Assembly: GCA_900757025.1 (NCBI GenBank)
Contig: CAAEMG010000007.1
Location: forward strand, 7,976 to 71,975
Origin: Clostridia bacterium
GTDB lineage: Bacteria > Bacillota > Clostridia > Lachnospirales > Anaerotignaceae
Length of the DNA stretch: 64,000 nucleotides
Direction: 5' to 3'
Shown: one piece after another, positions 10,297-62,141 of the stretch
How positions within the stretch are numbered: the first letter of the stretch is position 1
Layout of the letters: each line of letters begins with the position of its first letter
Program-made: the position numbers and the translations under genes
Notes under the pieces: generated by a model
The model's input: the letters and a program-made list of their open reading frames with translations, nothing else
What the model was told of the DNA's origin: nothing
Databases searched by the model: none

Positions 10297-10350
10297 ATTT
10301 ATTGCTTTTTGTCATTCTAAGCATAGCGAAGTTGAAGAATTTCATAAATC
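10297..10350 (+). repeat. Mosaic intergenic repeat, copy R2 (short hairpin unit)
   Basis: CTTTTTGTCATTCTAAGCATAGCGAAG...GAAGAATTTCATAAA. Carries the same TTTTGTCATNNTRAGC box as the other copies. Confidence 0.55.
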
Positions 10351-10510: not shown

Positions 10511-12070
10511 ATGGATAAAATGTTTTGCTTTCAGTGTCAGCAGACGGCACACAATACAGGCTGTGAAGGCAGATGCGGAGTTTGCGGAAAAAAAGAAGAT
10601 ACGGCAAATGCACAGGATAATCTTACAAGCTCTCTTATAGGCCTTGCCAAAGCCGTAAAAAAATGCGGAGCAACAAAAACTTCCGATGAGCTTATTTTAA
10701 AAGGACTTTTTACAACAATAACAAATGTAAATTTCTATACAGAAACAGTTGAAAAACTTACGGCAGAAATTGAAAATGAAAAAAATTCAATCTGCGGCGG
10801 CACGGAAAATTATGACGTTAAAAAAATATGGGAAGACAACGAAGATATTCGTTCTTTAAAATCACTTATACTTTTCGGCATGAGAGGTATGGCGGCATAT
10901 GCCTACCATGCTTTTGCCCTTGGATATACGGATAAAGACGTAACAGACTTTTTCTATGAAGGCCTTTGTGCATTGGCAGAAGAAAACACAATGGAAAAAC
11001 TTTTGCCCGTTGTTTTAAAAACAGGCGAGGCAAACTTTAACTGTATGGCTCTTCTTGATAAGGCAAATACAGAAAGCTACGGAAATCCCGTTCCTACGGA
11101 AGTTCCTCTTACAATAGAAAAAGGGCCTTTTATAGTTGTAAGCGGACATGACCTTCACGACCTTAAACTTCTTTTGGAACAGACAAAGGACAAAGGCATA
11201 AATATTTATACCCACAGCGAAATGCTTCCTGCCCACGGCTATCCAGAGCTTAAAAAATATAAGCATTTAAAGGGAAATTTCGGCACGGCATGGCAAAGCC
11301 AGCAGTCGGAATTTCATAATATTCCCGCACCGATACTTTTTACAACAAACTGTCTTATGCCTGTACGCCAAAGCTACGCCGACAGAGTTTTCACAACTTC
11401 AGTTGTTTCATATCCGGAGCTTGTGCATATAGGCGAAGACAAAGATTTTACGCCTGTTATAGAAAAAGCGCTTGAATGCGGAGGATACAAAGAAGACCAC
11501 CCTATGACGGGAATAAACGGCGGAAGCACAGTAATGACAGGCTTTGCACATAACGCCGTATTGGAAAACGCAGGAAAAATAGTTGATTTGGTTAAAAAAG
11601 GAAAAATAAAGCATTTCTTCCTTGTGGGCGGATGCGACGGCGCAGCACCGGGCAGAAGCTATTACACAGAATTTGCAAAGAAAACACCTATGGACACAAT
11701 TATTCTTACTCTTGCCTGCGGAAAATACAGAATAAACGATTTGGATTTGGGCAATATAGAAGGACTTCCGAGAATTATGGACATGGGACAGTGCAACGAC
11801 GCCTACAGTGCCGTAAAAGTTGCTCTGGCTCTTGCCGAGGCTTTCAACTGTTCCGTAAACGAACTTCCTCTTACTCTTGTGCTTTCATGGTATGAGCAGA
11901 AGGCTGTGGCAATACTTCTTTCACTGCTTTATTTGGGAATAAAGAATATTTACCTCGGTCCTACACTTCCGGCTTTTGTATCGCCTAACGTGCTTAATTT
12001 CCTTGTGGAAAATTACAATATTTCGCCTATAAGCACACCGGAAGAAGATTTGAAAAAAATACTTGGGTAA
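10511..12070 (+). CDS. hcp: Hydroxylamine reductase / hybrid-cluster protein
   Basis: N-terminal Cys cluster MFCFQCQQT..C..C..C, 519 aa, Hcp pattern throughout. GGAGG lies 7 nt upstream. Confidence 0.9.
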   Translation: MDKMFCFQCQQTAHNTGCEGRCGVCGKKEDTANAQDNLTSSLIGLAKAVKKCGATKTSDELILKGLFTTITNVNFYTETVEKLTAEIENEKNSICGGTENYDVKKIWEDNEDIRSLKSLILFGMRGMAAYAYHAFALGYTDKDVTDFFYEGLCALAEENTMEKLLPVVLKTGEANFNCMALLDKANTESYGNPVPTEVPLTIEKGPFIVVSGHDLHDLKLLLEQTKDKGINIYTHSEMLPAHGYPELKKYKHLKGNFGTAWQSQQSEFHNIPAPILFTTNCLMPVRQSYADRVFTTSVVSYPELVHIGEDKDFTPVIEKALECGGYKEDHPMTGINGGSTVMTGFAHNAVLENAGKIVDLVKKGKIKHFFLVGGCDGAAPGRSYYTEFAKKTPMDTIILTLACGKYRINDLDLGNIEGLPRIMDMGQCNDAYSAVKVALALAEAFNCSVNELPLTLVLSWYEQKAVAILLSLLYLGIKNIYLGPTLPAFVSPNVLNFLVENYNISPISTPEEDLKKILG

Positions 12071-12185
12071 ATTTTGATTTAACGGACAGTTCCATTTATC
12101 AAAAACCGCCAATATTTTGTCATTGTTATTTTTCATTTTGAGCAACGAAATCTTCGTGTTTCGCAGCTCAACATAACAAATATTA
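12071..12185 (+). repeat. Mosaic intergenic repeat, copy R3 (5' box plus TIR pair)
   Basis: ATTTTGATTTAACGG box. Left TIR AATATTTTGTCATTG..TTGAGC (12111-) and inverted partner GCTCAACATAACAAATATT (12165-12183). Confidence 0.65.
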
Positions 12186-12202
12186 TAATAAACACATTAA
12201 AA

Positions 12203-13469: not shown

Positions 13470-13770
13470 ATTTTGGTAAAAGAACCCTAATTGATAATAC
13501 CGTCCGGTTGCTTATGAAAGCGTTGGCAAAAAATAAACACACAATAATAAAAAATAGTAGGCAAAAGCAATAAAAGTAATACATGGTAACAAATCAAAAG
13601 TTGGGTAATACTTTTCTTTGCCGAAAACCATCAATATTTTGTCGTGTTGAGCGAATGTCGCAAGACCGCAGTCGAATACATGAAAAAAACGATAAACTTA
13701 CGGGTTTCGTCTAATCTCATAAGTTCTTTCGGCTCCGTTTCATTTCGCTTAGGATAACAAAATATTTTAG
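13470..13770 (+). repeat. Mosaic intergenic repeat, copy R4 (TIR pair enclosing about 90 bp)
   Basis: Left TIR CAATATTTTGTCGTGTTGAGCGAA (13632-13655). Inverted partner TTTCGCTTAGGATAACAAAATATTTT (13743-13768). Upstream pieces are shared with R1 and R6. Confidence 0.65.
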
Positions 13771-13870
13771 ATTTTAAACTATTCGCCAAGCCATAATTTT
13801 TCTTCCCCACACAGCAAAAAACAGTGCCGTGAATTAAATTCCCGACACTGCCTTTTTTAAATTTCATTCA

Positions 13871-16393
13871 TTATTCTTTTTCGGAATCGTCTTTAGACTC
13901 TTCTGTGTTTTCTTTGCTTTTTTCATCCTCTGTAGCCTGTTTTTTAATTTCAAAATCAGCCTTGAGGTCAAACTGTGCCTCGCCGTCCTTTGCACTTACT
14001 ACAACCGTATCGCCGGCTTTGAACTTGCCGTCAAGGAAGCTTTCCGCAAAAGCATCTTCGATTTTGCTCTGTAAAGCTCTTCTTAAAGGTCTTGCGCCGT
14101 ATGCCGGATCAAAGCCTTCTTTTGCAATATAGTCTATTGCACTGTCGTCAAATTCAACTGTAATATCCATGTTTTCGTCAACACGTTTTACAATATCCTT
14201 AGCCATAAGCTTTACGATTTCTTTTACGTTTTCTTCGTTAAGGGCATGGAATACGATTATATCATCAATTCTGTTAAGAAATTCCGGTCTGAAAATGTTT
14301 TTAAGGTCAGCCATAACGCCTTTTTTCATTTCGTCATATGTCTTTTCCTTCTGCTCAACTTCGCCGTTCTTAAATCCAAGTGTCTTAGATTCAACAATGT
14401 TTCTTGCGCCTGCGTTTGATGTCATAATTATAACGGTATTCTTAAAGTCTACCTTTCTGCCCTGACCGTCTGTAATATGGCCATCATCAAGAACCTGAAG
14501 AAGTACGTTAAATACATCAGGAGAAGCCTTTTCAATTTCATCGAAAAGAACTACCGAATAAGGTTTTCTTCTTACCTTTTCGCTAAGCTGTCCGCCTTCT
14601 TCATATCCTACATATCCCGGAGGAGCACCGATAAGTTTTGACACATCGAATTTTTCCATATATTCGCTCATATCAATTCTTATCATAGCGTTTTCATCGC
14701 CGAAAAGAACTTCCGCAAGAGCCTTTGAAAGCTCTGTTTTACCAACACCTGTAGGGCCTAAGAAAAGGAATGAACCTATAGGTCTCTTAGGGTCTTTAAG
14801 GCCAACTCTGCCACGTCTTATTGCCTTTGCAACGGCTGATACTGCCTCTTCCTGTCCGATTACTCTTTCATGGAGAATTTTTTCCATGTTAAGAAGTCTT
14901 TCGCCTTCCTCCTGCTGAATACTCTTTACAGGAATACCTGTCCAGTTTGCAATTACATCGGCAATTTCGTTTTCCGTAACAACTTTATCTTTTGAAGAGT
15001 TTTTAAGCTCCCAGTTTTTCTTTGCGTCCTCAAGTTTCTTTTTAAGGCCGTCCTGCTGTTTCTTAACCTTTGAAGCCTTTTCAAAGTCTTCTGTTTTAAC
15101 AGCCTCTTCCTTTTCTTTTTCAAGAGATGAAAGCTCGTCTTCAAGTTCTTTTATACCGCTTGGAGCTGTAAATGTTTCAAGACGCATTTTTGATGCAGCT
15201 TCATCAATAAGGTCGATAGCCTTATCCGGAAGAAATCTGTCTGTAATATATCTTGAACTCATCTTTACGGCTGCCTCGATAGCCTCATCGCTGATTTTTA
15301 CATTGTGGTGAGCCTCATATTTATCTCTTAAACCGTAAAGCATTTTAATTGCTGCCTCTTCGTCAGGCTCTTCAACCTTTACAGGCTGGAAACGTCTTTC
15401 AAGGGCTGCATCTTTTTCGATATATTTTCTGTATTCGTTTATTGTTGTTGCACCTATAAGCTGAATTTCGCCTCTTGCAAGAGATGGTTTCAAAATATTT
15501 GACGCATCTATTGCACCTTCGGCACCGCCGGCACCTATAATTGTATGGATTTCATCAATAAAGAGAATTACATGACCGTCTTTTTTAACTTCGTCCATTA
15601 CAGATTTAATTCTTTCCTCAAATTCGCCTCTGTATTTGCTGCCTGCAACCATTGATGAAATATCAAGGCAGACAACTCTTTTGTCTTTAAGTATTTCGGG
15701 AATATCGCCTTTGGCAATTTTCTGTGCAAGACCTTCGGCAATAGCTGTTTTACCAACACCAGGGTCGCCCACAAGACAAGGATTGTTCTTTGTTCTTCGG
15801 CTTAAAATCTGAATTACTCTGTCAATTTCCTTATCACGGCCTATAATAGGGTCAAACTTGTTGTCCTTTGCCATCTGTGTAAAATCTCTGCTGTATTTAT
15901 CAAGGTTTGGTGTGTTGCCTTCGCCTGTTGAAGCCGATGAAGAACCGTTTCCGTCTTTTTCGCCTTCACCCAGCATATTCATTACATCTTCATAAATTCT
16001 CTGGATATTTGCACCCAAAGATGCAAGAATTTTAACGGCAATGCAGTCGCTTTCGCTTAAAAGAGCAATAAGAATATGCTCTGTGCCAACATAGCCTGCC
16101 TGAAGGTTTACAGCCTCCTGAACACTTCTGTCTATAATTCTTTTAACTCTCGGTGTATAGCCTTCGGCACCTGATGTGCTGTTGCCTCTGCCGATAACCG
16201 TTTCAACTTTATCCCAAACATCGCTGCGGCTTATGCCCTGGCTTTCAATGGCTTTTGCAGCCACGCTGTCGCTTACAGACATAATGCCGATAAGAAGATG
16301 TTCTGTTCCTATATAATCATGGCCAAGATCATAAGCGGCTTCCTGTGCCTTTCTTATAACTTCCTGTGCCTTTTCAGTAAATTTTCCCTGCAT
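13871..16393 (-). CDS. clpC: ATP-dependent Clp protease ATP-binding subunit ClpC
   Basis: 840 aa with a double Clp-N repeat, two AAA+ modules (GDPGVGKT, GPTGVGKT) and a UVR-like linker. There is an extra acidic C-terminal tail. Confidence 0.95.
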   Translation of the reverse strand: MQGKFTEKAQEVIRKAQEAAYDLGHDYIGTEHLLIGIMSVSDSVAAKAIESQGISRSDVWDKVETVIGRGNSTSGAEGYTPRVKRIIDRSVQEAVNLQAGYVGTEHILIALLSESDCIAVKILASLGANIQRIYEDVMNMLGEGEKDGNGSSSASTGEGNTPNLDKYSRDFTQMAKDNKFDPIIGRDKEIDRVIQILSRRTKNNPCLVGDPGVGKTAIAEGLAQKIAKGDIPEILKDKRVVCLDISSMVAGSKYRGEFEERIKSVMDEVKKDGHVILFIDEIHTIIGAGGAEGAIDASNILKPSLARGEIQLIGATTINEYRKYIEKDAALERRFQPVKVEEPDEEAAIKMLYGLRDKYEAHHNVKISDEAIEAAVKMSSRYITDRFLPDKAIDLIDEAASKMRLETFTAPSGIKELEDELSSLEKEKEEAVKTEDFEKASKVKKQQDGLKKKLEDAKKNWELKNSSKDKVVTENEIADVIANWTGIPVKSIQQEEGERLLNMEKILHERVIGQEEAVSAVAKAIRRGRVGLKDPKRPIGSFLFLGPTGVGKTELSKALAEVLFGDENAMIRIDMSEYMEKFDVSKLIGAPPGYVGYEEGGQLSEKVRRKPYSVVLFDEIEKASPDVFNVLLQVLDDGHITDGQGRKVDFKNTVIIMTSNAGARNIVESKTLGFKNGEVEQKEKTYDEMKKGVMADLKNIFRPEFLNRIDDIIVFHALNEENVKEIVKLMAKDIVKRVDENMDITVEFDDSAIDYIAKEGFDPAYGARPLRRALQSKIEDAFAESFLDGKFKAGDTVVVSAKDGEAQFDLKADFEIKKQATEDEKSKENTEESKDDSEKE

Positions 16394-16416
16394 AATTCAA
16401 GCCTCCTTTTTTCAGC

Positions 16417-17445
16417 TTAATTTTTAAATGTTCTTCTAAGGTAATCCGCTCTTGCCTCATCACGCTTGTTTACATCATTTGTGTTTGAGGAAAGCTGTAT
16501 ATTGCCCGGCTGAACATTTATCATAATATTATATATTGTTTCGTTTACCTTTGGAATATCCGAAAGCCCTAAAAGATAACCCTCTCTTATATTTGAAAGG
16601 TGTTTCATTGCTTCCGAACCCGATATTTTTCTTGCATTTTGAATTATTCCCAGTGAACGGTAAATTCTGTCCTCGGTTTCAATTCTTTCGTTTTTCATGT
16701 GGCTTTCTCTTATTTTCAGCTCTCTGTCTTTAACAAATTTAACCACATTTTTAAGATTTTTGATAATCTCCTGCTCGCTCTGACCCAGTGTAACCTGATT
16801 TGAAATTTGATATATGCTGCCCAAAGCCTCGCTGCCTTCGCCGTAAATTCCTCGTATTGTTACGCCGAATTTACTTATGGCTTCAAGAAGATTTTTCATC
16901 TGTCCCGCTCTTTCTATAAAGGGCAGGTGCATCATAAACGATGCCCTAAGCCCTGTACCCATATTTGTAGGACAGGCTGTTATATAGCCATATTTTTCAT
17001 TGTAGGCATATTCAACGCTTTCTTCAATAAGGTCATCTATTTTATCGGCTAAATCCCAAGCTTTATCAATGTTTTCGCCGGGAAATACCGTTTGTATTCT
17101 TATGTGGTCTTCTTCGTTAAGCATTATGCTTACGGTTTCATCGTTTTTTACAAGCACTGCACAGTTTTTGTTTTTGCTTAAAAGCACAGGGCTTATAATA
17201 TGTTTTTCCATAAGCTCTTTTTTCTTTAAAGCCGGAAGATAATTAACCTCTATAAACTCAAAATCCTTTGAAATAGGAGTTCTTTCGTTTACTATAGCGT
17301 CCTTAACCTCATCAATCATCTGTTTCGTCTGGGTTTCATTCATAGTTTCGGGGAAAGGATACTTTTTAAGGTTTCTTGCCAATCTCACTCTTGAGGAAAT
17401 AACTATGCCTTCATTACAGGCGCTGTCTTCATACCATTTTGACAT
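16417..17445 (-). CDS. mcsB: Protein arginine kinase McsB
   Basis: ATP:guanido phosphotransferase pattern (..SSRVRLARNL.., ..CPTNMGTGLRAS..). ATG 17445 follows the mcsA stop, with AAGGAGG upstream. Confidence 0.9.
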   Translation of the reverse strand: MSKWYEDSACNEGIVISSRVRLARNLKKYPFPETMNETQTKQMIDEVKDAIVNERTPISKDFEFIEVNYLPALKKKELMEKHIISPVLLSKNKNCAVLVKNDETVSIMLNEEDHIRIQTVFPGENIDKAWDLADKIDDLIEESVEYAYNEKYGYITACPTNMGTGLRASFMMHLPFIERAGQMKNLLEAISKFGVTIRGIYGEGSEALGSIYQISNQVTLGQSEQEIIKNLKNVVKFVKDRELKIRESHMKNERIETEDRIYRSLGIIQNARKISGSEAMKHLSNIREGYLLGLSDIPKVNETIYNIMINVQPGNIQLSSNTNDVNKRDEARADYLRRTFKN

Positions 17446-17446
17446 A

Positions 17447-17950
17447 TTATTTATCCTCCTTTTCAAGCTCTTTTATTCTGTCCCTAAGTTTTGCCGCCTC
17501 TTCATACTCTTCATTTTCTATTGCCGAAGCAAGCTTTCTTTTAAGAATTTCCTTTTCACGCTTTGCGGCAAGTTTACCTCCGCTTTTATGAGGAATTTTT
17601 CCTTTATGTTCATCACTGCCGTGAATACTTTTAAGAACCGAATCCATATATGGGCTGAAAGCCTTTATACAGTCTCCGCAGCCAAGTTTGCCGCTTTGCC
17701 TGAACTGGTCATAAGTCATGCCGCAGGAAGGACATCTTGCGGAAGCTATATTATGATATTCGTTTCCCAAAAAAGCATTGTCTGCCGTTACGTTAAACAA
17801 ATCCTTAAACATATTATCAAATGAAAAGCTTGTTGCGAGGCCGGCTTTTTCAGCACAATGGCTGCACAAATACATTTCTTTTACATCGCCGTTAATAACC
17901 TGTTTCATATGAACCGTTGCAGGGTTCTTTTTGCATCTTTCACAAAGCAT
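17447..17950 (-). CDS. mcsA: McsA (UvrB/UvrC-motif, zinc-finger activator of McsB)
   Basis: CxxC pairs (CERC, CSHC, CPSC, CGDC) and a UVR motif EEYEEAAKLRDRIKELE. Start ATG 17950 lies 7 nt after GGAGG. Confidence 0.85.
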   Translation of the reverse strand: MLCERCKKNPATVHMKQVINGDVKEMYLCSHCAEKAGLATSFSFDNMFKDLFNVTADNAFLGNEYHNIASARCPSCGMTYDQFRQSGKLGCGDCIKAFSPYMDSVLKSIHGSDEHKGKIPHKSGGKLAAKREKEILKRKLASAIENEEYEEAAKLRDRIKELEKEDK

Positions 17951-17966
17951 ACACAAGCCTCCTTTG

Positions 17967-17993
17967 TTAGCCACCTTGCTATTAGGTTGCTAA
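17967..17993 (-). promoter_or_regulatory. Proximal CIRCE-geometry inverted repeat TTAGCAACC-N9-GGTGGCTAA
   Basis: 9-N9-9 inverted repeat with 8/9 arm complementarity. It ends 4 nt (CAAA) before the mcsA SD. 13/18 arm matches to the CIRCE consensus TTAGCACTC-N9-GAGTGCTAA. Confidence 0.55.
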
Positions 17994-18040
17994 AGCATAT
18001 CCAAAATATAAGACCTTAACGGTCATTTTTTCTTTTTTTG

Positions 18041-18067
18041 TTAGCCACTAAACTATATGATTGCTAA
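18041..18067 (-). promoter_or_regulatory. Distal CIRCE-geometry inverted repeat TTAGCAATC-N9-AGTGGCTAA
   Basis: Direct repeat of the proximal element 74 bp away (shared TTAGCAA..TAG...GTGGCTAACAAA). It starts 12 nt after the putative -10. Confidence 0.55.
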
Positions 18068-18080
18068 CTTTTATAATGCT

Positions 18081-18108
18081 ATAATATCACTGTTTTTCTA
18101 TTTGTCAA
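18081..18108 (-). promoter_or_regulatory. Putative sigma-A promoter of mcsA-mcsB-clpC
   Basis: TTGACA (18108-18103), 16-nt spacer, TATTAT (18086-18081). Confidence 0.55.
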
Positions 18109-18238
18109 TAGTTTTTTTAAAATTTTTCAAAAAATTTTTAAACAGACATTTTTATATATTTTTCGACACTTTCACAAAACATTCATATTATAATCACATA
18201 ATATATTTGTAAACAGAAATAAACTTATTTAAAATAAA

Positions 18239-18263
18239 AGCCTGCTTTCAGAAAAAGCAGGCT
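18239..18263. terminator. Bidirectional terminator ending the feo operon
   Basis: AGCCTGCTTT-CAGAA-AAAGCAGGCT flanked by A/T runs. Confidence 0.8.
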
Positions 18264-18270
18264 TTTATTT

Positions 18271-18438
18271 TTATTTTTTATTCAATTCATCCATAAGCTG
18301 TTTGCTTGGACAGTCTTTAACGCTGCATCCGCTGCAACCGCCTCCGCAGCCGGTTGATTTTCTTTTTTTCATAACTCTTATGCTGTTTGCAACTATAAGT
18401 ATAACAACAAGCACAAGAAGAATATCCCATACAGACAT
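18271..18438 (-). CDS. FeoB-associated Cys-rich small membrane protein (55 aa, below the ORF-track cutoff)
   Basis: Hand translation gives MSVWDILLVLVVILIVANSIRVMKKRKSTGCGGGCSGCSVKDCPSKQLMDELNKK*. GGAGG lies 6 nt upstream and the gene is directly downstream of feoB. Confidence 0.75.
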   Translation of the reverse strand: MSVWDILLVLVVILIVANSIRVMKKRKSTGCGGGCSGCSVKDCPSKQLMDELNKK

Positions 18439-18502
18439 ATTATGCCTCCTTTTTTTCTCTTATATCCATATTACTATGTAAAGGAAACAAAATAAAGTAT
18501 TT

Positions 18503-20843: not shown

Positions 20844-21030
20844 AAATTTTGGTTTGACGGATACATTTTATTTTAAAAAACTAAATTAATTTGTCATGTT
20901 GAACGGAGCGAATTTCGCTCAGAATGACAAATAGAAATAGTTTTATCAAAGTTTAGGGCAACCATTTTTAAATGGGTGTAAGTGTATTGGGGCAAAGCCA
21001 CCAAAGCCTTATCTGTTTTAAAAAACCTAA
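20844..21030 (+). repeat. Mosaic intergenic repeat, copy R5 (5' box, adjacent TIR hairpin, GGGGCAAAGCC tail)
   Basis: AAATTTTGGTTTGACGG...TTTTATTTTAAAAAACTAAA aligns with R6 over about 90 nt. TIR hairpin TTTGTCATGTTGAACGGAGCGAA/TTCGCTCAGAATGACAAA at 20887-20932. Confidence 0.7.
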
Positions 21031-21113
21031 TTTACTTTTCTTCCCCCAATATTTCCAATTTCGGCTTTATATTCTTTTCCCACTTTGTTATACTTATTTC
21101 ACGGAGGTGTATT

Positions 21114-22190
21114 ATGGAAGAAAACAACAATATTTCAACAGAAAATTCAGCGCCTAAAGAGCCTGAAAAAAACATAAACTATAACACAAACTACAATACC
21201 AATTATTACAAAAACGATAAAAAACACGGCTGTCTTTTTTACGGCATAATAGCCATCATTATCATATTTGTTGGCTTTATGGCTGTTATAATTGCATCGG
21301 CGGCACTTTTTTCATCTCTTGTTTCCGATAGCAGCTACAGCTCTTATCCCGACTCAAGCTATGTTGAAACTCTCTATATAGAAGGAACAATTTCCGAAAG
21401 CACTTCATATTCCTACGGAGAAACAGGATATAACCATACATGGACAATAAACGAAGTTGAGCGCCTTATTGACGACGAAAACAACAAAGGCATACTTCTT
21501 TATATCAATTCTCCCGGCGGAGGAACATATGAAAGTGACGAAATGTATCTTGAACTGAAAAAATACAAAGAAAAAACCGGCAGGCCAATATATGCCTACT
21601 ATGCTCAAACGGCAGCTTCCGGTGCTCTTTATATTTCTATGGCAGCAGACGAAATATATGCCAACCGAATGACCATGACAGGCTCTATAGGTGTTATAAT
21701 GCAAAACTATGATGCAAGCGGCCTTATGGAAAAGCTGGGAATAAAAAGCGACAATATTGTAAGCGGACGAAACAAAGGCATGGGCGGATATGACGGTCTT
21801 ACAGATGAGCAGAAACAGATATTGCAGTCTATGGTAAATGAAAGCTATGATATTTTTGTAGGCATAGTTTCAGATGAAAGAGGAATACCGCTTGAAAAAG
21901 CAAAAGAAATTGCCGACGGCAGAGTTTACAGCGCACATCAGGCAAAAAATCTCGGTCTTATAGATGAAATTTCAACATATGACGGCTTTATGGATACAAT
22001 GCAGAACAAAGAAGAATTTAAAGACTGTGATTTTACAGACGCATATTACGAAAATACTTCCATTTTGAATATGCTTATGTCAAAAATAGGAATACCTCAA
22101 AGAAAAAGCCTTGAACAGAACCTTCTTGAGGCTGTTGAATATGCAAACGAAAACCCTATGCAGTATAAATTCGGCGGAATAGGACAATAA
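21114..22190 (+). CDS. sppA: Signal peptide peptidase SppA (36K type)
   Basis: One TM segment followed by the S49 domain (..LYINSPGGG.., ..ASGALYIS..). Start set at ATG 21114 (MEENNN) after a GGAGG SD. Confidence 0.85.
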   Translation: MEENNNISTENSAPKEPEKNINYNTNYNTNYYKNDKKHGCLFYGIIAIIIIFVGFMAVIIASAALFSSLVSDSSYSSYPDSSYVETLYIEGTISESTSYSYGETGYNHTWTINEVERLIDDENNKGILLYINSPGGGTYESDEMYLELKKYKEKTGRPIYAYYAQTAASGALYISMAADEIYANRMTMTGSIGVIMQNYDASGLMEKLGIKSDNIVSGRNKGMGGYDGLTDEQKQILQSMVNESYDIFVGIVSDERGIPLEKAKEIADGRVYSAHQAKNLGLIDEISTYDGFMDTMQNKEEFKDCDFTDAYYENTSILNMLMSKIGIPQRKSLEQNLLEAVEYANENPMQYKFGGIGQ

Positions 22191-22213
22191 GCAATAAGTT
22201 TTAAATTTATAAA

Positions 22214-22244
22214 AGCTTGAGTTTTTTTACTCAAGCTTTTTTTT
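22214..22244 (+). terminator. Intrinsic terminator of sppA
   Basis: AGCTTGAGT-TTTTTT-ACTCAAGCT followed by TTTTTTTT. Confidence 0.85.
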
Positions 22245-22247
22245 AAT

Positions 22248-22590
22248 AAATTTTGATTTGACGACTGCCTTTTATTTTAAAAAACTAAAATATTTTGTCA
22301 TCCTGAGCGAAGTGAAATGAGTCAGAATTTTGCTACGCAAAACCACATTCGGTGGCAACACTTTTTTGCTGTTTTCTGTCGAAGCATCCCATAAACCCGG
22401 ACAAAAAGCCGAAAGTCTGTCATCTTTACATATTCGACAATGTGGACGAGATGTTTCGACTACGTATGCGAACCCTATTGGGCGGCGCAACCGTTCCACA
22501 AGGTGGATTTCGCAGCCCGACCCTCAACATGACAAATATCGGTGGCTTTTTGTAGGGAAAACTATCCCCAATCCCTAATTTTACAAACTT
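22248..22590 (+). repeat. Mosaic intergenic repeat, copy R6 (largest; TIR-bounded, GC-richer core)
   Basis: 5' box AAATTTTGATTTGACG. Left TIR ATATTTTGTCATCCTGAGCGAAG (22290-) and inverted partner CTCAACATGACAAATAT (22523-22539). All six frames are open but none looks coding. Confidence 0.7.
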
Positions 22591-22601
22591 TTCAATTACC
22601 C

Positions 22602-23585
22602 TTACCAACTGTATTTTTTCACATCTTCCATTTTTACAGCAGGATGCACAGCCGTATTTATTGCATTTGCAATAATATCTGCCAGCCTGTCTATAACCAT
22701 GTCAACCTCTTTCGGCGTTACAAACATATTTTCCTCATATGGCGTAAGAAGTTCACGTATAAGCTCATATTTTTCCTCGTTTTCAAGGGATAAAATCATT
22801 TCATAAAACTCACTGCCGCTTTCGCTTTGGTTTTTCATTTCAAAAAGAATTTTATCCATTGTATCGTTTACAAGTGTAGCCGCATCAACAACCGTAGGCA
22901 CTCCTATTACAATAACAGGTATGCCAAGTGTTTTTTCGCTCAGCTCTTCTCTTTTGTTTCCAACTCCTGCCCCCGGTGCAACACCGCAGTTGCTTATCTG
23001 CACTGTGGAATTTATTCTGGAAAACTTTCTTGCGGCAAGTGCATCTATAGCTACTATAATATCCGGCTTAATTTTTTCCGTAACGCCTTTTATTATTTCA
23101 AATGTTTCTATTCCCGTTATCCCCATAACCCCCGGTGCAAGAGCCGAAAGCATTCTTACTCCTTTCTCCAGTTCTTCCGGAATATCTTCCATAATATGTC
23201 TTGTAACCAAAAGACGGTCTATAACCTTAGGGCCAAGGGCATCGGGCGTTATATTTCTGTTTCCCAAACCTACGGCAAGTATTGATTTTGCATTTTTAAA
23301 ACTGTCTATTTCCATAAGCACCCGTGAAATTTCTTTTGTTACGGCTTCGTGGCAGGAAGCATCGTTTTTTCTCAGTTTTTCGCTTTCCACCGTAATATAT
23401 CTGCCTATTTTTCTGCCAAGCTTTTTTTCTCCTTCTTCGTTTAAAATATCAACTGTTACAGAAGAAAAAATATCGTTTTTTTCTTCACTGAATTTTATAC
23501 CGTCGCCAAATTCCTGTTTTTGTTCTCTCAGCATTTCACAATTTTCGGCTGCAATATCTGTTCTTACGGAAAAAATTTTTTTCAT
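22602..23585 (-). CDS. gpr: Germination protease GPR (spore endopeptidase)
   Basis: MKKIFSVRTDIAAE..., ..GRYITVES.., ..IVAIDALAARK.. are typical of GPR. Start ATG 23585 has a GAGGTG SD. Confidence 0.9.
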   Translation of the reverse strand: MKKIFSVRTDIAAENCEMLREQKQEFGDGIKFSEEKNDIFSSVTVDILNEEGEKKLGRKIGRYITVESEKLRKNDASCHEAVTKEISRVLMEIDSFKNAKSILAVGLGNRNITPDALGPKVIDRLLVTRHIMEDIPEELEKGVRMLSALAPGVMGITGIETFEIIKGVTEKIKPDIIVAIDALAARKFSRINSTVQISNCGVAPGAGVGNKREELSEKTLGIPVIVIGVPTVVDAATLVNDTMDKILFEMKNQSESGSEFYEMILSLENEEKYELIRELLTPYEENMFVTPKEVDMVIDRLADIIANAINTAVHPAVKMEDVKKYSW

Positions 23586-23717
23586 ATTTTTCACCTCATA
23601 ATAAACTAAAATGTCTGTCGCCAATTATCCGATATTTTTCCCGATTTTTAAATTTTTATTATTGTACCTGCACCAAGTAAGCATTTTTCTCATAAAATAT
23701 ACTCGTAAGCTTAAAAT

Positions 23718-25700: not shown

Positions 25701-25964
25701 TTGCAGGTGCCTCCTTAAAAATATTTCGTATGCTATATATTAGTATACAATAAATTAGTATGCTATATAAGCATATTATATTTTTTAAAAATGTAAAGGC
25801 ATTTTTAAAAAATATATTTAAAATTTCGAATAAATTTTTCATCTGTTTTTTATCATCAAAAAAACACCGAAAATTCCTTGTTTTTTTTGTATAAATCATG
25901 GTTTTAATAATAGTTTAAACCATATCATATTGTTTGTCGAGTAGTTGAAAAAATAATAAACCTA

Positions 25965-26115
25965 TTGTTTGTAAAATAGTTTTTTTGTCAAAAGCCGACC
26001 ACATTTTGTTATGCTGAGCAAACGCAGTAAGCTGAAACATCTTATCTATATTGTCGAATATGCGGCAAAACATTAAAGCTTTTATCAAAAAGAACTATCC
26101 CTAAGTTCAAAACTT
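25965..26115 (+). repeat. Mosaic intergenic repeat, copy R7
   Basis: CACATTTTGTTATGCTGAGCAAACGC box (26000-). ATTGTCGAATATG is the inverted form of CATATTCGACAAT in R6. ACTATCCCTAAG is shared with the R6 tail. Confidence 0.6.
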
Positions 26116-28395: not shown

Positions 28396-28411
28396 CAGCA
28401 TAAATTCAATA

Positions 28412-28495
28412 TTTAACAGGGGTGCTGAGGTGCTGCAACCTATGCTGAGAGAGTCCCTTTGAACCTGATGCGGTCAGTACCGTTGTAGGGAGTAT
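28412..28495 (+). promoter_or_regulatory. TPP (THI-box) riboswitch
   Basis: ACAGGGGTGCTGAGG...CTGAGAGAGTCCCTTTGAACCTGATGCGGTCAGTACCGTTGTAGGGAG matches the conserved THI element core. It lies upstream of tenA. Confidence 0.9.
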
Positions 28496-28582
28496 GATAT
28501 ATTTGTTTATTTTAAACCATCTCCCTGCGGAAATGGCTTTTTTTATGTTCTTTAAAGCCCCATTAATAAAAGGAGGATATTT

Positions 28583-34185: not shown

Positions 34186-35406
34186 TTATGAACGGTAGTC
34201 TCCGTTAATTTTTACATAGTCATAGCTTAAATCGCATCCCCAGGCAGTAGCCTTTTTGCTGCCTTCGGAAATTTTGATGTTTACCGTAATTTCTTTTTCG
34301 CTTAAAATATTTGCCGCTTTTTCTTCGTCAAAAACAATAGGTGTACCGTTATCCATAAGAAGAATGTCGCCTTTTGCACTTTCAAAAACAATGTCAACCT
34401 TTGTAGGGTCAAATTTTACGCCGCTGTAGCCCATTGCACACAAAACTCTGCCCCAGTTTGCGTCTTCGCCAAACATAGCCGCTTTAACAAGGCTGCTTTT
34501 TACAACTGATTTTGCCATTGTTTTTGCGTCCTGCTCAGTTGCCGCACCGTTTACGTTTACTTCTATAAATTTTGTTGCGCCTTCACCGTCACGAACAAGA
34601 TTTTTTGCAAGTCTTTCGTTTACATAGTGAAGAGCTTCTTTAAATGTATCATAATCCTTGCCTTCGGAAGCGATTTCTTCGTTTTCGGCAAGACCGTTTG
34701 CCATTACTATAATTGTATCGTTTGTGCTTGTGTCGCCGTCTACCGAAACCATGTTGTAGGTTGTCTGGATATCGGCTTTAAGAGCCTTGTTTAAAAGTTC
34801 TTTGCTTATAGCACAGTCTGTTGTTACAAAAGCAAGCATAGTAGCCATATTAGGGCAAATCATTCCGCTTCCCTTTGCCATGCCGCCCATATGAACTGTT
34901 TTTCCGCCTATTTCAAATTCAACGGCAACTTCTTTGCTGTATGTATCTGTTGTCATTATTGCCTCTGCCGCAAGAAGAGCGTCACTTCTTTCATAGCCGA
35001 GGTTTTTATATGTGCTTTCAATACCGGCTGTTACGGTTTCGATAGGGAATGTTGCACCTATAACGCCTGTTGAAGCTGTAAGAATTGTGTTTTCGTCAAC
35101 GCCAAGGCAGTCGGCATATTTTTTTGCCATTTCCTTGTTGCTTTTAACGCCAAGCTCACCTGTGCAGGCATTGGCATTTCCGCTGTTTATTGCAACACCG
35201 TTTATTTTTGCTCCGCTTTCCATAATAGCCATGTTTCTTGTTACGCTTGTTGCCTTAACAACATTTGTTGTAAAAGCCGCAGCGGCTGTTGCCGGAACAT
35301 CGCTTGCTATAAGAGCCAAATCCTTAACGCCTTTTTTTATGCCTACTGCAGCTCCCGTTGCTCTGAAACCTTTTGCCGCCGTTACCGAACCGTCTATAAT
35401 TTTCAT
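34186..35406 (-). CDS. argJ: Ornithine acetyltransferase / N-acetylglutamate synthase ArgJ (paralog 1)
   Basis: ..GGMAKGSGMICPNMATMLAFVTTD.. self-cleavage site and C-terminal ..DLSYDYVKINGDYRS. Start ATG 35406 (MKIIDGS) has a GGAGG SD. Confidence 0.9.
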   Translation of the reverse strand: MKIIDGSVTAAKGFRATGAAVGIKKGVKDLALIASDVPATAAAAFTTNVVKATSVTRNMAIMESGAKINGVAINSGNANACTGELGVKSNKEMAKKYADCLGVDENTILTASTGVIGATFPIETVTAGIESTYKNLGYERSDALLAAEAIMTTDTYSKEVAVEFEIGGKTVHMGGMAKGSGMICPNMATMLAFVTTDCAISKELLNKALKADIQTTYNMVSVDGDTSTNDTIIVMANGLAENEEIASEGKDYDTFKEALHYVNERLAKNLVRDGEGATKFIEVNVNGAATEQDAKTMAKSVVKSSLVKAAMFGEDANWGRVLCAMGYSGVKFDPTKVDIVFESAKGDILLMDNGTPIVFDEEKAANILSEKEITVNIKISEGSKKATAWGCDLSYDYVKINGDYRS

Positions 35407-35426
35407 TTTGCTTTTTCCTCCTGTTT

Positions 35427-35672
35427 TCAGTCTTTCCAAGTTTGCCATTTCAGCTTATATTCATCGTGAACATCATTTTCGGCAAAATACACGGCAAGGC
35501 GATACACATAAAGCACACACCTGTCAATTTTACAGCCTGCCTTTAAACAGCTTTCTTCAAAAAGCTCCTCAGGATTTTTCCCTTTTAAATCCTCAAGAGA
35601 TTTTATGCCTATATCAAACAAATGCTGTTCCATGTTTTTGCCAACACCCGGTATTTTTCGCAAATCACTCAT
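35427..35672 (-). CDS. Helix-hairpin-helix domain protein (Cdd1/McrB-like small protein)
   Basis: 81 aa. LRKIPGVGKNMEQHLFDIGIKSLEDLKGKNPEELF is an HhH motif. Its ATG overlaps the stop of the upstream argJ (ATGA). Confidence 0.65.
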   Translation of the reverse strand: MSDLRKIPGVGKNMEQHLFDIGIKSLEDLKGKNPEELFEESCLKAGCKIDRCVLYVYRLAVYFAENDVHDEYKLKWQTWKD

Positions 35673-36898
35673 GTTCTCGACCTGTATTCTCCGTTTATTC
35701 TTACATATTCGTGTCCCAAATCGCAGCCCCAGCTTTTAGCCGAAGCATCGCCGTCACGAAGACGAATTTTAACAAATATATCTCTTTCCCCAAGTATTGA
35801 TGCCGCAATATTTTCGTCAAAGCGAACAGGCTCACCCTCACTCATAAGTGTCATTTTTCCGCCTTCGCTTTCAAAATCCATATCTATTTTTCTCTGGTCG
35901 AAATATCCTCCGCTTGAGCCCATAGCCGCTATAATTCTGCCCCAGTTTGCGTCCTCTCCGTACATAGCCGTTTTAACAAGGTTATTTGTAACTATAGCCT
36001 TAGCCATAAGGCGTGCATCTTTTTCGCTTTTTGCTCCCGTTATTTCAACCTCTATAAATTTGCTTGCTCCTTCGCCGTCATGTATAACATCTCTGGCAAA
36101 TTTCTCATTCATAAAATGAATTGCTTTGGCAAATTCCTCATAAAACTCATTTTCTTCCGTTATTTTTTCGTTTCCCGCCATGCCGTTTGCAATAACAAGT
36201 GCCATATCGTTTGTACTTGTTGCTCCGTCTACGGAAATCATGTTGTATGTTTCCTTAACGGAATCGTAAAGTGCCTTCTGCAAAAGCTCATGGCTTATAT
36301 TTATATCTGTTGTTATAAAAGAAAGAACAGTTGCCATATTGGGGTGAATCATTCCGCTTCCCTTTGCCATGCCGCCTATAATAACCTGTTTTCCGCCAAT
36401 ATTAAGCTGAAGTGCCATTTCTTTTATAAAAGTATCTGTTGTTATAATTCCCGATGCGGCGTTTCTTGCGCCGTCTCTTTTGTGTGTCAAATCCGGAAAT
36501 GTATCTTTAATTCCTTTAACTATTGTGTTCATAGGCATATCAAGGCCGATAATGCCTGTTGCCGCCGTAAGAACCTCTTCTTTTTCAACACCGAGGCAGT
36601 CGGCAAAGGTTTTTGCCATAAGCTCGTTATCTCTTATGCCCTGTGTTCCCGTGCAGGCGTTGGCATTGCCGCTTATGGCGGCTATGCCTCTTATTTTTTT
36701 GCCTGCCTTTGTTATTTTTTCATTCCATAAAAGAGGTGCGGCTTTAACTATATTGGTTGTGTATACCCCTGCCGCTTCTGCCGGAACATCACTTGTTACA
36801 AGGGCGATGTCTTTCTTAACTTTTTTTATGCCTATATGTTTGCCTGCCGCTTTAAAACCTTTTGGAGCTGTTATTCCTCCGTCTGTAACTCTGAACAA
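35669..36898 (-). CDS. argJ: Ornithine acetyltransferase ArgJ (paralog 2)
   Basis: ..GGMAKGSGMIHPNMATVLSFITTD.. and C-terminal ..DLGHEYVRINGEYRS. Roughly half the positions are identical to paralog 1 by eye. Confidence 0.9.
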   Translation of the reverse strand: MFRVTDGGITAPKGFKAAGKHIGIKKVKKDIALVTSDVPAEAAGVYTTNIVKAAPLLWNEKITKAGKKIRGIAAISGNANACTGTQGIRDNELMAKTFADCLGVEKEEVLTAATGIIGLDMPMNTIVKGIKDTFPDLTHKRDGARNAASGIITTDTFIKEMALQLNIGGKQVIIGGMAKGSGMIHPNMATVLSFITTDINISHELLQKALYDSVKETYNMISVDGATSTNDMALVIANGMAGNEKITEENEFYEEFAKAIHFMNEKFARDVIHDGEGASKFIEVEITGAKSEKDARLMAKAIVTNNLVKTAMYGEDANWGRIIAAMGSSGGYFDQRKIDMDFESEGGKMTLMSEGEPVRFDENIAASILGERDIFVKIRLRDGDASAKSWGCDLGHEYVRINGEYRSRT

Positions 36899-41402: not shown

Positions 41403-41408
41403 GATGTG

Positions 41409-41630
41409 AATTAGGGTTTGACGAATACTCATTTTTGTTTAAAGCCACCAACCTTTTGTCATGTTAAGTTTGCGGAATCTATGTATTCCGCCTGCGAATT
41501 CCTCTTTGCGGAACGGCTCGTTCAGAATTTTCCTTTGGAAAATTCTTGACCAAGCAAAATTCCTGAGCAAAGGAAGGCTTGTAGGGTGTTGGGGCAAAGC
41601 CCCAAGGTCTTAAACAAATCAAAATTTTAC
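41409..41630 (+). repeat. Mosaic intergenic repeat, copy R8 (array of short hairpins)
   Basis: TTAGGGTTTGACGAATAC box, CCTTTTGTCATGTTAAG box, and hairpins at 41472-41491, 41525-41545 and 41591-41603. The TTGTAGGG..GGGGCAAAGCC tail is shared with R5 and R6. Confidence 0.65.
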
Positions 41631-52947: not shown

Positions 52948-53095
52948 AGCTCAGCACCTCCAAACAAAATAAAAAAAGCGGACAGCAAAACTATCCGCAA
53001 AAAATCTACATAAAGGCTTATGCCTAAAGTTATATTTATTAACCCTGTCGTGCTTTGTGCCGCAAGGTGAGAAGCGGATACTTCTGCTTTGTTAC
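52948..53095 (-). promoter_or_regulatory. infC-rpmI-rplT leader with a terminator/antiterminator (L20-leader-type attenuator)
   Basis: Minus-strand hairpin GCGGATAG-TTTTG-CTGTCCGC plus T7 (52998-52971) lies upstream of the SD. An upstream TATCCGC can pair with the terminator 5' arm. Confidence 0.55.
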
Positions 53096-55194: not shown

Positions 55195-55435
55195 TAAAAA
55201 AGCCCCTGTCCGCATTTGCAGACAGGGACGAATTAACGTGGTTCCACCCTGATTATTTTTTCCTAAGAAAAAACATCTCTAAAGCCTTAACGCAGCTTAA
55301 ACGGGCATTTTTTCAGTGCCGCTCAAAGTTCAGTTTTCACCGCAATGTTTCTTAAAAACGCTTTCAGCCTGTGGCGTTTTCTCTCTTTAAGGCTTGTATA
55401 CGGCTACTCTACTTTTCATAGCTTTTTTCTTATAC
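55195..55435 (-). promoter_or_regulatory. T-box leader (threonine-type) with a terminator
   Basis: Minus strand carries AGAGAG, the T-box AATCAGGGTGGAACCACG (55254-55237) and the terminator CCCTGTC..GACAGGG plus a T-run (55227-55195). Candidate specifier is ACT in GGTGAAAACTG. Confidence 0.85.
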
Positions 55436-58825: not shown

Positions 58826-59482
58826 ATGGAAAATTTTAAAAAAATCGATTTTGAAAACTGGAACAGAAAAGAACACTATAAATACTATACAGAAAAACTT
58901 AAAGTAGGCTACAGCATGACAGTAAGCCTTGATGTAACAAACATAGTAAATTTCTGCAAAAAAAATAACATTAAATTTTTTAACGCATTTATATACTGCG
59001 TAGGAAAAGTTATAAATAGTACAGACAATTTAAGAATGTTTAAGGATAAAGACGGCATGCCATGCGTATGGAACAAATGCGTGCCAAATTACACAATATT
59101 CCATAAGGACGACGAAACATTTTCGGATTTATGGAGTGATTTCGACTTTGACTTTGAAGTATTTAGCCAAAACATGAATAACGATATAAAAACCTACGGC
59201 AATATAAAAGGCATAAAAGCAAAAGAAAACCAGCCGCCAAACTTTTTCTGCATATCCTGTGTGCCTTGGATAAATTTTACAGCCTACACAGCTTATACGG
59301 CAGAAGGCACACCTGCTTTTTTCCCAATAATAACCTACGGAAAATATGTTGAAGAAAACGGAAGATTAAAAATGCCTTTTAATATGTCAATTTCTCATGC
59401 CGTATGTGACGGATACCATGCGGCAAAATTTTTCAACAATGTTCAAAAAGAAATTGATGATTTTGAAAACTTAATAAAATAA
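58826..59482 (+). CDS. cat: Type A chloramphenicol O-acetyltransferase family protein
   Basis: 218 aa and aligns along its length with classical CAT. Active-site block ISHAVCDGYHAAKF is present (classical HHAVCDGFH). Confidence 0.8.
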   Translation: MENFKKIDFENWNRKEHYKYYTEKLKVGYSMTVSLDVTNIVNFCKKNNIKFFNAFIYCVGKVINSTDNLRMFKDKDGMPCVWNKCVPNYTIFHKDDETFSDLWSDFDFDFEVFSQNMNNDIKTYGNIKGIKAKENQPPNFFCISCVPWINFTAYTAYTAEGTPAFFPIITYGKYVEENGRLKMPFNMSISHAVCDGYHAAKFFNNVQKEIDDFENLIK

Positions 59483-60856: not shown

Positions 60857-61186
60857 AAGAATATACATTTGTGTTAAATATACATTTCTAATTTTCCTAA
60901 AAATATATAATAGCCACAAACGGATATAAGTCAAGAAATAAAAATACGGAAAAACACTGCGTAAAATTGTTAAAATAGATAATTGAGGTTTTTGTTTCGC
61001 AGCCAATTATTGGAAAAAAATATCTAATGTATACAAATATAGCGTTAGCCACTTAAAAAAATTGGGCATAACCGCAAAAAAATAACCGCTGATAAAAAAA
61101 TAACAATTATTGTTAATTAATAAAAAATTAAGGGATATTTAAGAAATCAAAAGAGAATATACAGGAAAATTATTCAGTTTCTGGTA

Positions 61187-61340
61187 AATTTTGATTTGAT
61201 AAAAATATTGCTCTGCTTGTAATTACTCTTTTCAAAGGCAGTATTCAGTTGACAGTGTTAAGTGAGCAGTCGGCAGTTTTTCCGACTGCTGCACACTAAT
61301 CACCGATTTTTGTCAAAAATAAGTATTCGCCAACTACCAA
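61187..61340 (+). repeat. Mosaic intergenic repeat, copy R9
   Basis: AAATTTTGATTTGAT box, GTGTTAAGTGAGC box, hairpin GCAGTCGG..CCGACTGC, and TTTTTGTCAAAA. Confidence 0.5.
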
Positions 61341-62141
61341 TTATATTTTCACAAATTCCGGCTTTTTGTCTGTAAAAAGCGTAAGATATTTAAAGCCTGC
61401 CTCTTCAAGCATTTTATATGCCTTGTCAAAATCCTTCGCTATATCTTCCGGCACATGGGCGTCAGAGCCAACGGTTATTATTTCTCCTCCAAGCTCTTTA
61501 TATCTTTTTACCAGCTCAAACTGAGGATGGGTATGACCCAAGCCGTAGCGATAGCCGGATGTATTAATTTCTATGCCCTTGCCTTTTTCTATAAGTGTTT
61601 TCAAAATTTCGTCGGTAATAAACTTATAATCGCCGTAAACCATTTTTTTGTCTGCATAGTTTCCGTAACGGTTTATAAAATCAATATGTCCGTAAACACT
61701 GAAAAAATCACAGGTTTTCACATTATTAAGTACATCGGCAAAATATCCCAGATATGCCATAAATTTTGTTTTGCCTTCAAAAAAATCATTTGTGCAAAGG
61801 TCACATTTGTCAACCACATGGCTTGAGGCAATAACAAAATCATAATGATTTTTCATAAGTTCATCTATTTCTTTAAGCACATGGGGCTGAACACCAACCT
61901 CAACACCTGTTTTTATTTTAATTTTCCTGCTGTATTTTTCTTTCAGCCTTTCTATTTCAGCCCTATAAGGCGCATAATCGAATACAAAAGGAAAATCAGG
62001 GTCGGGATAGTCAAAATCTATGTGGTCTGTAACGGCAATTTCTCTAAGCCCCAAATCAACGGCTTTTTTTATGTTTTCCTCCAAAGGCGTTGAGCTGTCC
62101 GAAGAAAAATCCGAATGTGTATGATAATCTGCAATAAACAT
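61341..62141 (-). CDS. PHP-domain histidinol-phosphatase family protein (HisJ/HisK type)
   Basis: MFIADYHTHSDFSSDS..., ..VTDH.., ..SSH.., ..GSDAH.. metal ligands. Start ATG 62141 lies 9 nt after GGAGG. Confidence 0.8.
   Translation of the reverse strand: MFIADYHTHSDFSSDSSTPLEENIKKAVDLGLREIAVTDHIDFDYPDPDFPFVFDYAPYRAEIERLKEKYSRKIKIKTGVEVGVQPHVLKEIDELMKNHYDFVIASSHVVDKCDLCTNDFFEGKTKFMAYLGYFADVLNNVKTCDFFSVYGHIDFINRYGNYADKKMVYGDYKFITDEILKTLIEKGKGIEINTSGYRYGLGHTHPQFELVKRYKELGGEIITVGSDAHVPEDIAKDFDKAYKMLEEAGFKYLTLFTDKKPEFVKI

Follow-up and report, generated by a model that had tools for sequence, protein, structure and literature searches.

A GC-rich island between sppA and gpr as a probable copy of a lineage-specific, MITE-like mosaic repeat in an uncultured Clostridia genome

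In the 64,000-nt stretch of an uncultured Clostridia genome analyzed here (the window), the convergent genes sppA and gpr are separated by an island of ca. 335 bp (22248-22582) that differs from its surroundings in composition and appears to be noncoding. The question raised by this locus is what the island is, and whether it acts as DNA or as RNA; a first-pass annotation had proposed either a MITE-like element of some 250 bp or a structured noncoding RNA. On the left, sppA (20982-22190, plus strand) encodes a Peptidase_S49 (SppA-type) signal-peptide peptidase; on the right, gpr (22602-23624, minus strand) encodes a Peptidase_A25 germination protease whose open reading frame (ORF) starts with a TTG codon and whose annotated form has 327 amino acids (in our searches this form matched only contigs of 1.2 to 1.6 kb). 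The listed GTG start of sppA (20982-21003) overlaps a sequence resembling the right part of a repeat copy described below as copy E (GTGTATTGGGGCAAAGCC) and, judged from this sequence, the true start of sppA probably lies further downstream. Just to the left of the island, and outside it, a hairpin (AAAAGCTTGAGT-N6-ACTCAAGCTTTT, 22211-22240; a 12-nt, 100% complementary inverted repeat) terminates sppA on the plus strand. On the minus strand, no other terminator-like hairpin lies downstream of gpr and, because this one carries a T-run on both sides, we infer that it is used bidirectionally. Given that no gpr terminator precedes this hairpin, the island is probably transcribed as part of the gpr 3′ untranslated region.

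The elementary observations of the first-pass annotation were sound. The G+C content of positions 22290 to 22540 is 45.4%, compared to 38.1% for the whole window, which places this segment in the 96th percentile of all 251-nt windows; other intergenic regions of the window have 16 to 40% G+C. Four overlapping ORFs of 60 to 82 amino acids are indeed present, on both strands and in different frames, and none of them matched Pfam at an E value of ≤1, in keeping with the earlier impression that none looks like protein. Each of the quoted strings was found where it had been placed: the island begins with AAATTTTGATTTGACG (22248); the inverted boxes ATATTTTGTCATCCTGAGCGAAG (22290-22312) and CTCAACATGACAAATAT (22523-22539) form a 14-nt pair that is 86% complementary across 215 nt; GTCGAAGCATC pairs with GATGTTTCGAC (22378/22450) at 91% complementarity; and the hairpin strings CCACATTCGGTGG and CCACAAGGTGG lie at 22343 and 22496, with TCGGTGGC occurring twice, at 22348 and 22539.

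Our preferred reading, to which we assign a probability of roughly 0.7, is that the island is one copy (copy A) of a lineage-specific, multicopy, noncoding mosaic repeat of the bacterial MITE or interspersed-palindrome kind. This repeat family, which fills many intergenic gaps of the genome, is ordinary selfish or neutral DNA; the family is new, and the kind to which it belongs (bacterial MITEs and mosaic intergenic repeats) is already known. Bacterial MITEs are elements of up to ca. 400 bp in which terminal inverted repeats surround a core, which encode no transposase, and which form long stem-loops (PMC3184786). Copy A is ca. 335 bp long, has no Pfam-matching ORF, carries inverted arms around a core, and has dispersed relatives. 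The earlier proposal of a MITE-like element thus holds as to kind (multicopy, noncoding, with terminal inverted repeats, and present at many intergenic sites) and fails as to boundaries: the pair at 22290 and 22539, which had been taken for the ends, represents the inner boxes of two longer arms. The true terminus is the motif AAATTTTGATTTGACG with which the island begins; its inverted partner lies at 22566-22582, so that the real unit extends from 22248 to ca. 22582.

Repetition of the island, which had been suggested as a check, was found: the window alone has at least six to eight copies, and metagenome contigs of the same species carry others. A profile of the arm identified 13 arms in the 64 kb, mostly in inverted pairs and all of them intergenic, corresponding to six to eight elements. 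When the island was compared with the window by blastn, its first 81 nt recurred at 20844-20925 (80% identity, E = 1.7e-15) and, more weakly, at 13738-13778 and 12069-12123. The motif AAATTTTGATTTGACGG occurs 6 times in the window (0.9 expected), and the left box, with up to three mismatches allowed, occurs 3 times (0.00 expected from shuffled sequences). Copy B (20844-~20950, plus strand) occupies the divergent feoA-sppA spacer and consists of a full arm and a short second one with a 45-nt palindrome between them (arm E values of 3e-13 and 1.6e-5). Copy C (13591-13801, plus), located between a cation-efflux gene and clpC, has a 133-nt hairpin inside its two arms (E = 6e-12 and 7e-11), and copy D (12069-12186, plus), which starts at the hcp (prismane) stop codon and ends before a terminator, has one arm (E = 1.6e-11) and a 75-nt inner hairpin. 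Copy E (41408-41629, plus; E = 2e-12) lies between two convergent terminators and retains both outer motifs; copy F (25959-26115, plus), in the divergent thrE-metG spacer, has two arms (E = 7.5e-9 and 5.4e-8) and a partial core. Copy H (61186-61343, plus) is weak or decayed (E = 1.8e-4 for one arm). Collectively, these copies occupy convergent, divergent, and tandem spacers and show every orientation relative to their neighbors.

Outside the window, a metagenome scan with a gapped arm pattern yielded five contigs, at 38% G+C. Contig L025 represents the feoB-sppA locus (98.3% identity) and carries copy B with four substitutions, none of them compensatory; L024 and L026 represent one further locus, which holds the most canonical element of all, and L027 and L028 carry another full element. 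Among GTDB representative genomes, the same gapped pattern gave a single chance match, in Weissella, implying that the species is not represented there. Arm patterns run against viral contigs (IMG/VR) gave nothing or chance matches in coding DNA, and blastn of the island against plasmids and INPHARED phages returned essentially nothing. With copies only 65 to 88% alike, nothing points to recent activity.

The general plan of an element is that of two inverted arms of ca. 65 nt enclosing a hairpin core of variable length. The arm consensus comprises (T)AAATTTTGRTTTGRCG, a spacer of ca. 26 nt, and then ATATTTTGTCAT(SY)TGAGCG, where SY is CC/GT. In copy A, arm 1 (22248-22311, plus strand; nhmmer arm model, E = 2.9e-14) runs from the terminal motif (T)AAATTTTGATTTGACG (22248-22263) through an AT-rich spacer to the inner box ATATTTTGTCATCCTGAGCGAAG; blastn aligns it with copy B at 80% identity over 82 nt (E = 1.7e-15) and with L027 at 87% over 69 nt (E = 1.5e-17). 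It is followed by a module with the CCACATTCGGTGG hairpin (22313-22374) that has no significant match elsewhere, and then by the family core, a hairpin of ca. 90 nt (AGTCGAAACATCTCGTC ... TTGTCGAATATG ... GGGATGCTTCGAC; 22375-22464, minus strand) that was recognized by both blastn and a core HMM and that includes the 22378/22450 pairing which had been described as an interior helix. Positions 22368-22465 are 77 to 78% identical to the cores of L027 and L028 over 94 to 99 nt (E = 3e-13, blastn); the core HMM matches copy A at E = 8e-24, copy A itself being in the seed, and partial cores are present in copies C and F. Beyond the core lies a GC-rich module (22465-22520), part of which is common to copy E: positions 22491-22515 (CCGTTCCACAAGGTGGATTTCGCAG) recur there in reverse complement (41492-41516; 84% over 25 nt), and positions 22489-22580 of copy A align in reverse with 41518-41409 of copy E (E = 0.003 and 0.00024). 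The element closes with the inverted arm 2 (AAAATTAGGGATTGGGGATAG...AAAGCCACCGATATTTGTCATGTTGAG; 22521-22582, minus strand; nhmmer arm model, E = 1.7e-12), which resembles the left arm of copy E.

Since the core is shared with L027 and L028 and positions 22491-22515 recur in copy E, most of copy A is built from family modules, and only ca. 22313-22367 and ca. 22466-22490 are without a recognized relative. The core is flanked by two extra GC-richer modules of ca. 60 nt each, and it is these that produce the GC bump and the additional hairpins of this copy. The two arms of copy A are imperfect and their spacers are not complementary to each other; across the family, moreover, the inner hairpin may be oriented either way round relative to the arm types. 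Together, these two features are more readily explained by nesting or inversion than by a simple MITE made in one piece.

Several short motifs in the family can be noted separately. Perfect Spo0A-box heptamers (TGTCGAA/TTCGACA) are present in the family core, in the window at 22431-22437, 22375-22381, and 26054-26060 and also in the core of L028. Inspected by eye, CGTCAAATCAAAATTT mismatches the CtsR-box consensus and CUGAGCGAAG that of a hammerhead-like motif, and both readings were dismissed. The inner box and the arm spacer together form a predicted sigma-70-like site (ATGACA-16 nt-TAAAAT; 22274-22301, minus strand; 10/12 matches), and the same arrangement is found in the arms of copy B (20862-20897), L027, and L028, so that one arm may provide a candidate outward promoter. 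In copy A this site aims at the sppA terminator, and in copy B it points toward feoA, which has its own TTGACA-17-TAATAT upstream. A sigma-70 promoter using TTGACG in the arm as its −35 element was rejected, as no −10 element lies at 16 to 18 nt.

Could the island instead be a structured RNA, either a cis-acting element of the gpr 3′ untranslated region or a small RNA, with the family representing paralogous RNA genes or elements? Its GC enrichment, its position after the gpr stop codon and ahead of the sole terminator-like hairpin that follows this gene, the great stability of the family hairpins, and the folding of the minus (gpr-sense) strand (z = −3.45, versus −1.68 for the plus strand) are all what such an RNA might be expected to show. 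However, we regard this explanation as very unlikely. Rfam gave no match in 22248-22590 even at an E value of ≤10, and for the canonical relatives L024 and L011 and 13 viral loci it gave only chance or generic-hairpin matches; the gathering-threshold matches in the whole window were limited to a T-box, an L20 leader, and a TPP riboswitch, all of them elsewhere. No promoter was found preceding copy A on either strand, the only sigma-70-like site being the outward-facing one at the far end, and no promoter/terminator pair of its own was found. The better fold of the minus strand is not a property of the family, because the inner hairpins of L024, C, D, and B are symmetric in this respect, with fold z scores of −3 to −5 on both strands. 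The copies lie in all orientations to genes, and copy E, between two terminators, is outside any transcription unit.

The pattern of divergence also argues against an RNA. Compared with the window, contig L002 has 5 differences in 187 nt of the element versus 1 in 265 nt of gpr, and between L027 and L028 the core has ca. 13 substitutions and a 9-nt indel versus 1 difference in ca. 330 nt of flank. Strain differences are therefore concentrated in the element, which diverges faster than its coding flanks, and none of them restores a base pair among the few full copies compared; to the extent that so few copies allow, then, covariation, for which the first-pass annotation had suggested looking, is absent. 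The closest named Gpr relatives are from Anaerotignum (ca. 57% identity). More distant relatives have a different synteny at the locus: where Gpr is 57 to 70% identical, gpr is followed by rny and there are no arm matches, and thus no cross-species alignment of the island is possible. The absence of the island at the loci with 65 to 70% Gpr identity is itself a point against a conserved RNA.

Further evidence comes from the behavior of the repeat in assemblies. Two independent contigs of the same species end within the repeated core, at 22458 and 22414. L027 (700-800) and L028 (520-560) have the element and the right flank in common (99.6% identical), and their left flanks, trmK in L027 and a TauE-like gene in L028, are unrelated from exactly (T)AAATTTTG outward. 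This divergence point fixes the outer boundary of the element and places it at a rearrangement junction. (In L027, a further terminal motif, solo and inverted, lies 28 nt away and overlaps the trmK start region ATGGAAATTTTGATTTGACG.) The Rfam result, the rates, the fold symmetry, the orientations of the copies, the contig breaks, and the boundary all agree with a DNA repeat that is decaying and recombining, as opposed to a structured RNA that is conserved.

A second alternative, that the island is the remnant of a decayed protein-coding gene or a prophage fragment, could draw on the four ORFs in their different frames. Against this, the ORFs overlap on both strands and are without Pfam matches, the modules are repeated in noncoding DNA, and neither phage nor plasmid collections contain a match. 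The first-pass annotation had held that a unique region alignable to a decayed gene in relatives would undo its proposal; the island is repeated elsewhere and does not fit that description. We consider this explanation scarcely credible and effectively refuted already.

If copy A belongs to a MITE-like family, how did the family spread? Presumably it did so as nonautonomous DNA, relying on an enzyme that acts in trans and whose gene lies at another place in the genome. One candidate is a TA-duplicating transposase of the IS630/Tc1 type, suggested by the fact that most ends read TA|AATTTTG; such a DDE/TA mechanism would predict an insertion sequence (IS) with TAAATTTTGATTTGACGG-like ends. Correia and RUP elements target TA. 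In our family, T precedes AAATT at 10 of the 15 ends, which is compatible with TA|AATTTTG duplication and equally with TA being the first two letters of the terminal inverted repeat. Neither in the 64-kb window nor on the extra contigs did we find a gene for a transposase, a recombinase, or a Y1/RAYT protein, and no autonomous IS with related ends was found in the window, on the extra contigs, or in pattern scans of GTDB representatives and IMG/VR. Nor did we find empty sites, although the same-species sampling is very thin (contigs L001, L002, and L025, all of which carry copies). After their dispersal, the copies would have decayed, swapped modules, and served as recombination substrates, and copy A would now be passive DNA in the convergent sppA/gpr spacer, where its hairpins might incidentally affect 3′-end stability. 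Alternatively, the patchy conservation of TTTGTCAT and TTTGRCG in otherwise decayed arms could reflect selection (for instance, on sites bound by a protein), in which case these motifs would not be relics. “MITE-like mosaic repeat” is thus a supported label, to which the mobilization chemistry is added by inference only.

The inner box of the arm proved to have relatives of a different kind. It resembles a hairpin unit of ca. 25 nt that comprises TGTCAT, a 5-bp stem (ATYCT/AGRAT) around GA-GCGAAGC-GA, and then C, described by the pattern TGTCAT-YCT-GAGCGAAGCGA-AGR-ATC. TTTGTCATYCTGAGCGAA occurs in 13 IMG/VR contigs (38 to 62% G+C), and GTCATYCTGAGCGRAGYG occurs in at least 120 (38 to 69% G+C). 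Such hairpins (loci L007-L019 and L031-L145; e.g., L011 504-575, L015 4078-5300, and L094 860-2100) may stand alone (singlets), form inverted doublets, or follow one another in tandem arrays; they occupy the short spacers between genes of phage structural modules, face either way relative to genes, and have no transposase nearby. An HMM built solely from 74 viral hairpins matched the L024 element (E = 2e-8), the left box of copy A (22294-22312, plus strand; E = 1.7e-5), and the right box of copy B (E = 1.4e-4). In copy A, the 5′ half (TGTCATYCTGAGCG) is perfect and the 3′ partner is degenerate, with GAAATGAG instead of GAAGGATC, whereas L024, a same-species copy, retains the full hairpin. With its 3′ stem partner lost, copy A is a relic and not a functional member of the class. 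Within the window, a solo hairpin of this class (TTTTTGTCATTCTAAGCATAGCGAAGTTGAAGAATTTC; 10305-10345, plus strand; E = 0.002) directly follows the stop codon of a GH3 gene and has no outer arms.

Among 147 distinct instances, selected by the 5′ half only, the Y/R stem position is T-A in 45, C-G in 44, and discordant in 10, the remainder being length variants; G-C and second-position compensations are also present. T occupies position −1 of the 5′ flank in 131 of the 147, and the loop, which contains GCGAAGC, is conserved in sequence. In the doublets, each half retains its own Y/R pair and the pairing between halves is imperfect. The class is absent from Rfam; a full-text search of a literature library for the hairpin DNA, RNA, and peptide strings found only unrelated primers; and blastn of the canonical doublet against PLSDB and INPHARED gave essentially nothing. 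A search of 128 viral loci revealed no clean empty site, and the orthologous intergenic regions there were mosaic and hypervariable. An expected association of such hairpins with adjoining small GIY-YIG or four-helix-bundle genes was not seen among the neighboring ORFs listed. One tentative possibility, which we are inclined to doubt, is that the inner box represents a hitherto undescribed class of ca. 25-nt hairpins that crosses phyla, occupies the intergenic DNA of bacteria and many phages, and is recognized by a widespread protein. Strict sequence conservation together with stem covariation would suggest recognition as folded single-stranded DNA or RNA, and the protein could be a mobilizing HUH-type enzyme or an RNA- or terminator-associated factor. 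If so, the Clostridia repeat family would be a local carrier of such hairpins.

A related but separate explanation is that the family is REP/REPIN-like, with the ca. 25-nt hairpin being the functional unit in the form of folded single-stranded DNA, mobilized by an HUH/Y1-type (RAYT-like) or other hairpin-recognizing protein, and with the outer arms being a lineage-specific carrier that received hairpin doublets. The clean stem covariation, the conserved 5′ flank and GCGAAGC loop, and the retention of a Y/R pair by each half of a doublet despite imperfect pairing between them would all be accounted for in this way, and singlets, inverted doublets, and tandem arrays correspond to the REP, REPIN, and BIME arrangements (PMC3184786). 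The solo hairpin at 10305-10345 and the TA that flanks the inner hairpin in copies A, C, and D point in the same direction. Nevertheless, we think this explanation unlikely. No Y1/RAYT gene lies in the window or in the loci inspected, and REP families are normally species specific, whereas this hairpin is nearly identical across 38 to 69% G+C. Copy A, with its 3′ partner lost, could not function in such a scheme, and the outer arms and their sharp outer boundary would be left unexplained.

Recognizing copy A as part of a MITE-like mosaic repeat family removes one candidate noncoding RNA from the window and explains its odd intergenic stretches at 12069, 13591, 20844, 25959, 41408, and 61186. 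Such repeats break metagenome assemblies, mark synteny breakpoints (as in L027 versus L028), and seed spurious small ORFs, and knowledge of the family aids assembly and annotation of this uncultured Clostridia lineage. Of more interest as a lead than the repeat family itself is the embedded hairpin class; if truly undescribed, it would be a motif that is both very common in the intergenic DNA of phages and bacteria and constrained in structure.

Some other features of the window deserve mention in their own right. Two tandem, full-length ArgJ (ornithine acetyltransferase) paralogues (34186-35448 and 35669-36898) lie inside an arginine-biosynthesis cluster, with argB, argD, argC, argG, and argH nearby. 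The mcsA-mcsB-clpC operon (13871-18502) has no ctsR ORF upstream, and a 528-nt gap (17975-18502) holds only a 55-amino-acid, Cys-rich membrane ORF next to feoB. The TPP riboswitch (28408-28508) precedes tenA and an ABC transporter, the L20 leader (52964-53095) precedes infC-rpmI-rplT, and the T-box (55221-55428) precedes thrS, each in its expected place. A chloramphenicol acetyltransferase (CAT family) gene (58826-59482) directly follows a Y-family polymerase (dinB-like) gene.

Set against known systems, the inner hairpin class, taken by itself, shares with REP/REPIN sequences and their RAYTs a short hairpin that is conserved together with its 5′ flank, an occurrence as singlets, doublets, and arrays, and an intergenic location. 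It differs in lacking GTAG (the flank is TGTCAT instead) and in that no Y1_Tnp domain was present in any ORF scanned; unlike the species-specific REPs, moreover, its sequence is conserved across very different G+C contents and also in phage contigs. BIMEs (the REP clusters of E. coli) and pneumococcal BOX elements resemble the Clostridia family in being short intergenic cassettes of variable number and orientation, with hairpin modules and strain variation; the Clostridia modules are unrelated to theirs, have no recognizable IHF or gyrase sites or boxA/B/C, and are framed by two long inverted arms. The nearest parallels are the MITEs. From Correia/NEMIS (Neisseria), RUP (S. pneumoniae), ERIC/IRU (enterobacteria), and bcr1 (B. 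cereus group), the Clostridia family is set apart by the lack of sequence similarity, by its unusually long (ca. 65 nt), bipartite arms, by a mosaic interior that differs between copies, and by the age of these copies (65 to 88% alike). In other respects the likeness is close: these elements too are of 100 to 400 bp, with no ORF and with terminal inverted repeats around a variable core (PMC3184786). Bacterial MITEs are present in tens to hundreds of intergenic copies, many of which, as in the family described here, lie near terminators and gene ends (PMC3184786). Those of Correia/NEMIS, RUP, ERIC/IRU, and bcr1 form long stem-loops when transcribed, occasionally supply outward promoters, and serve as recombination substrates (PMC3184786), as the copies described here may also do.
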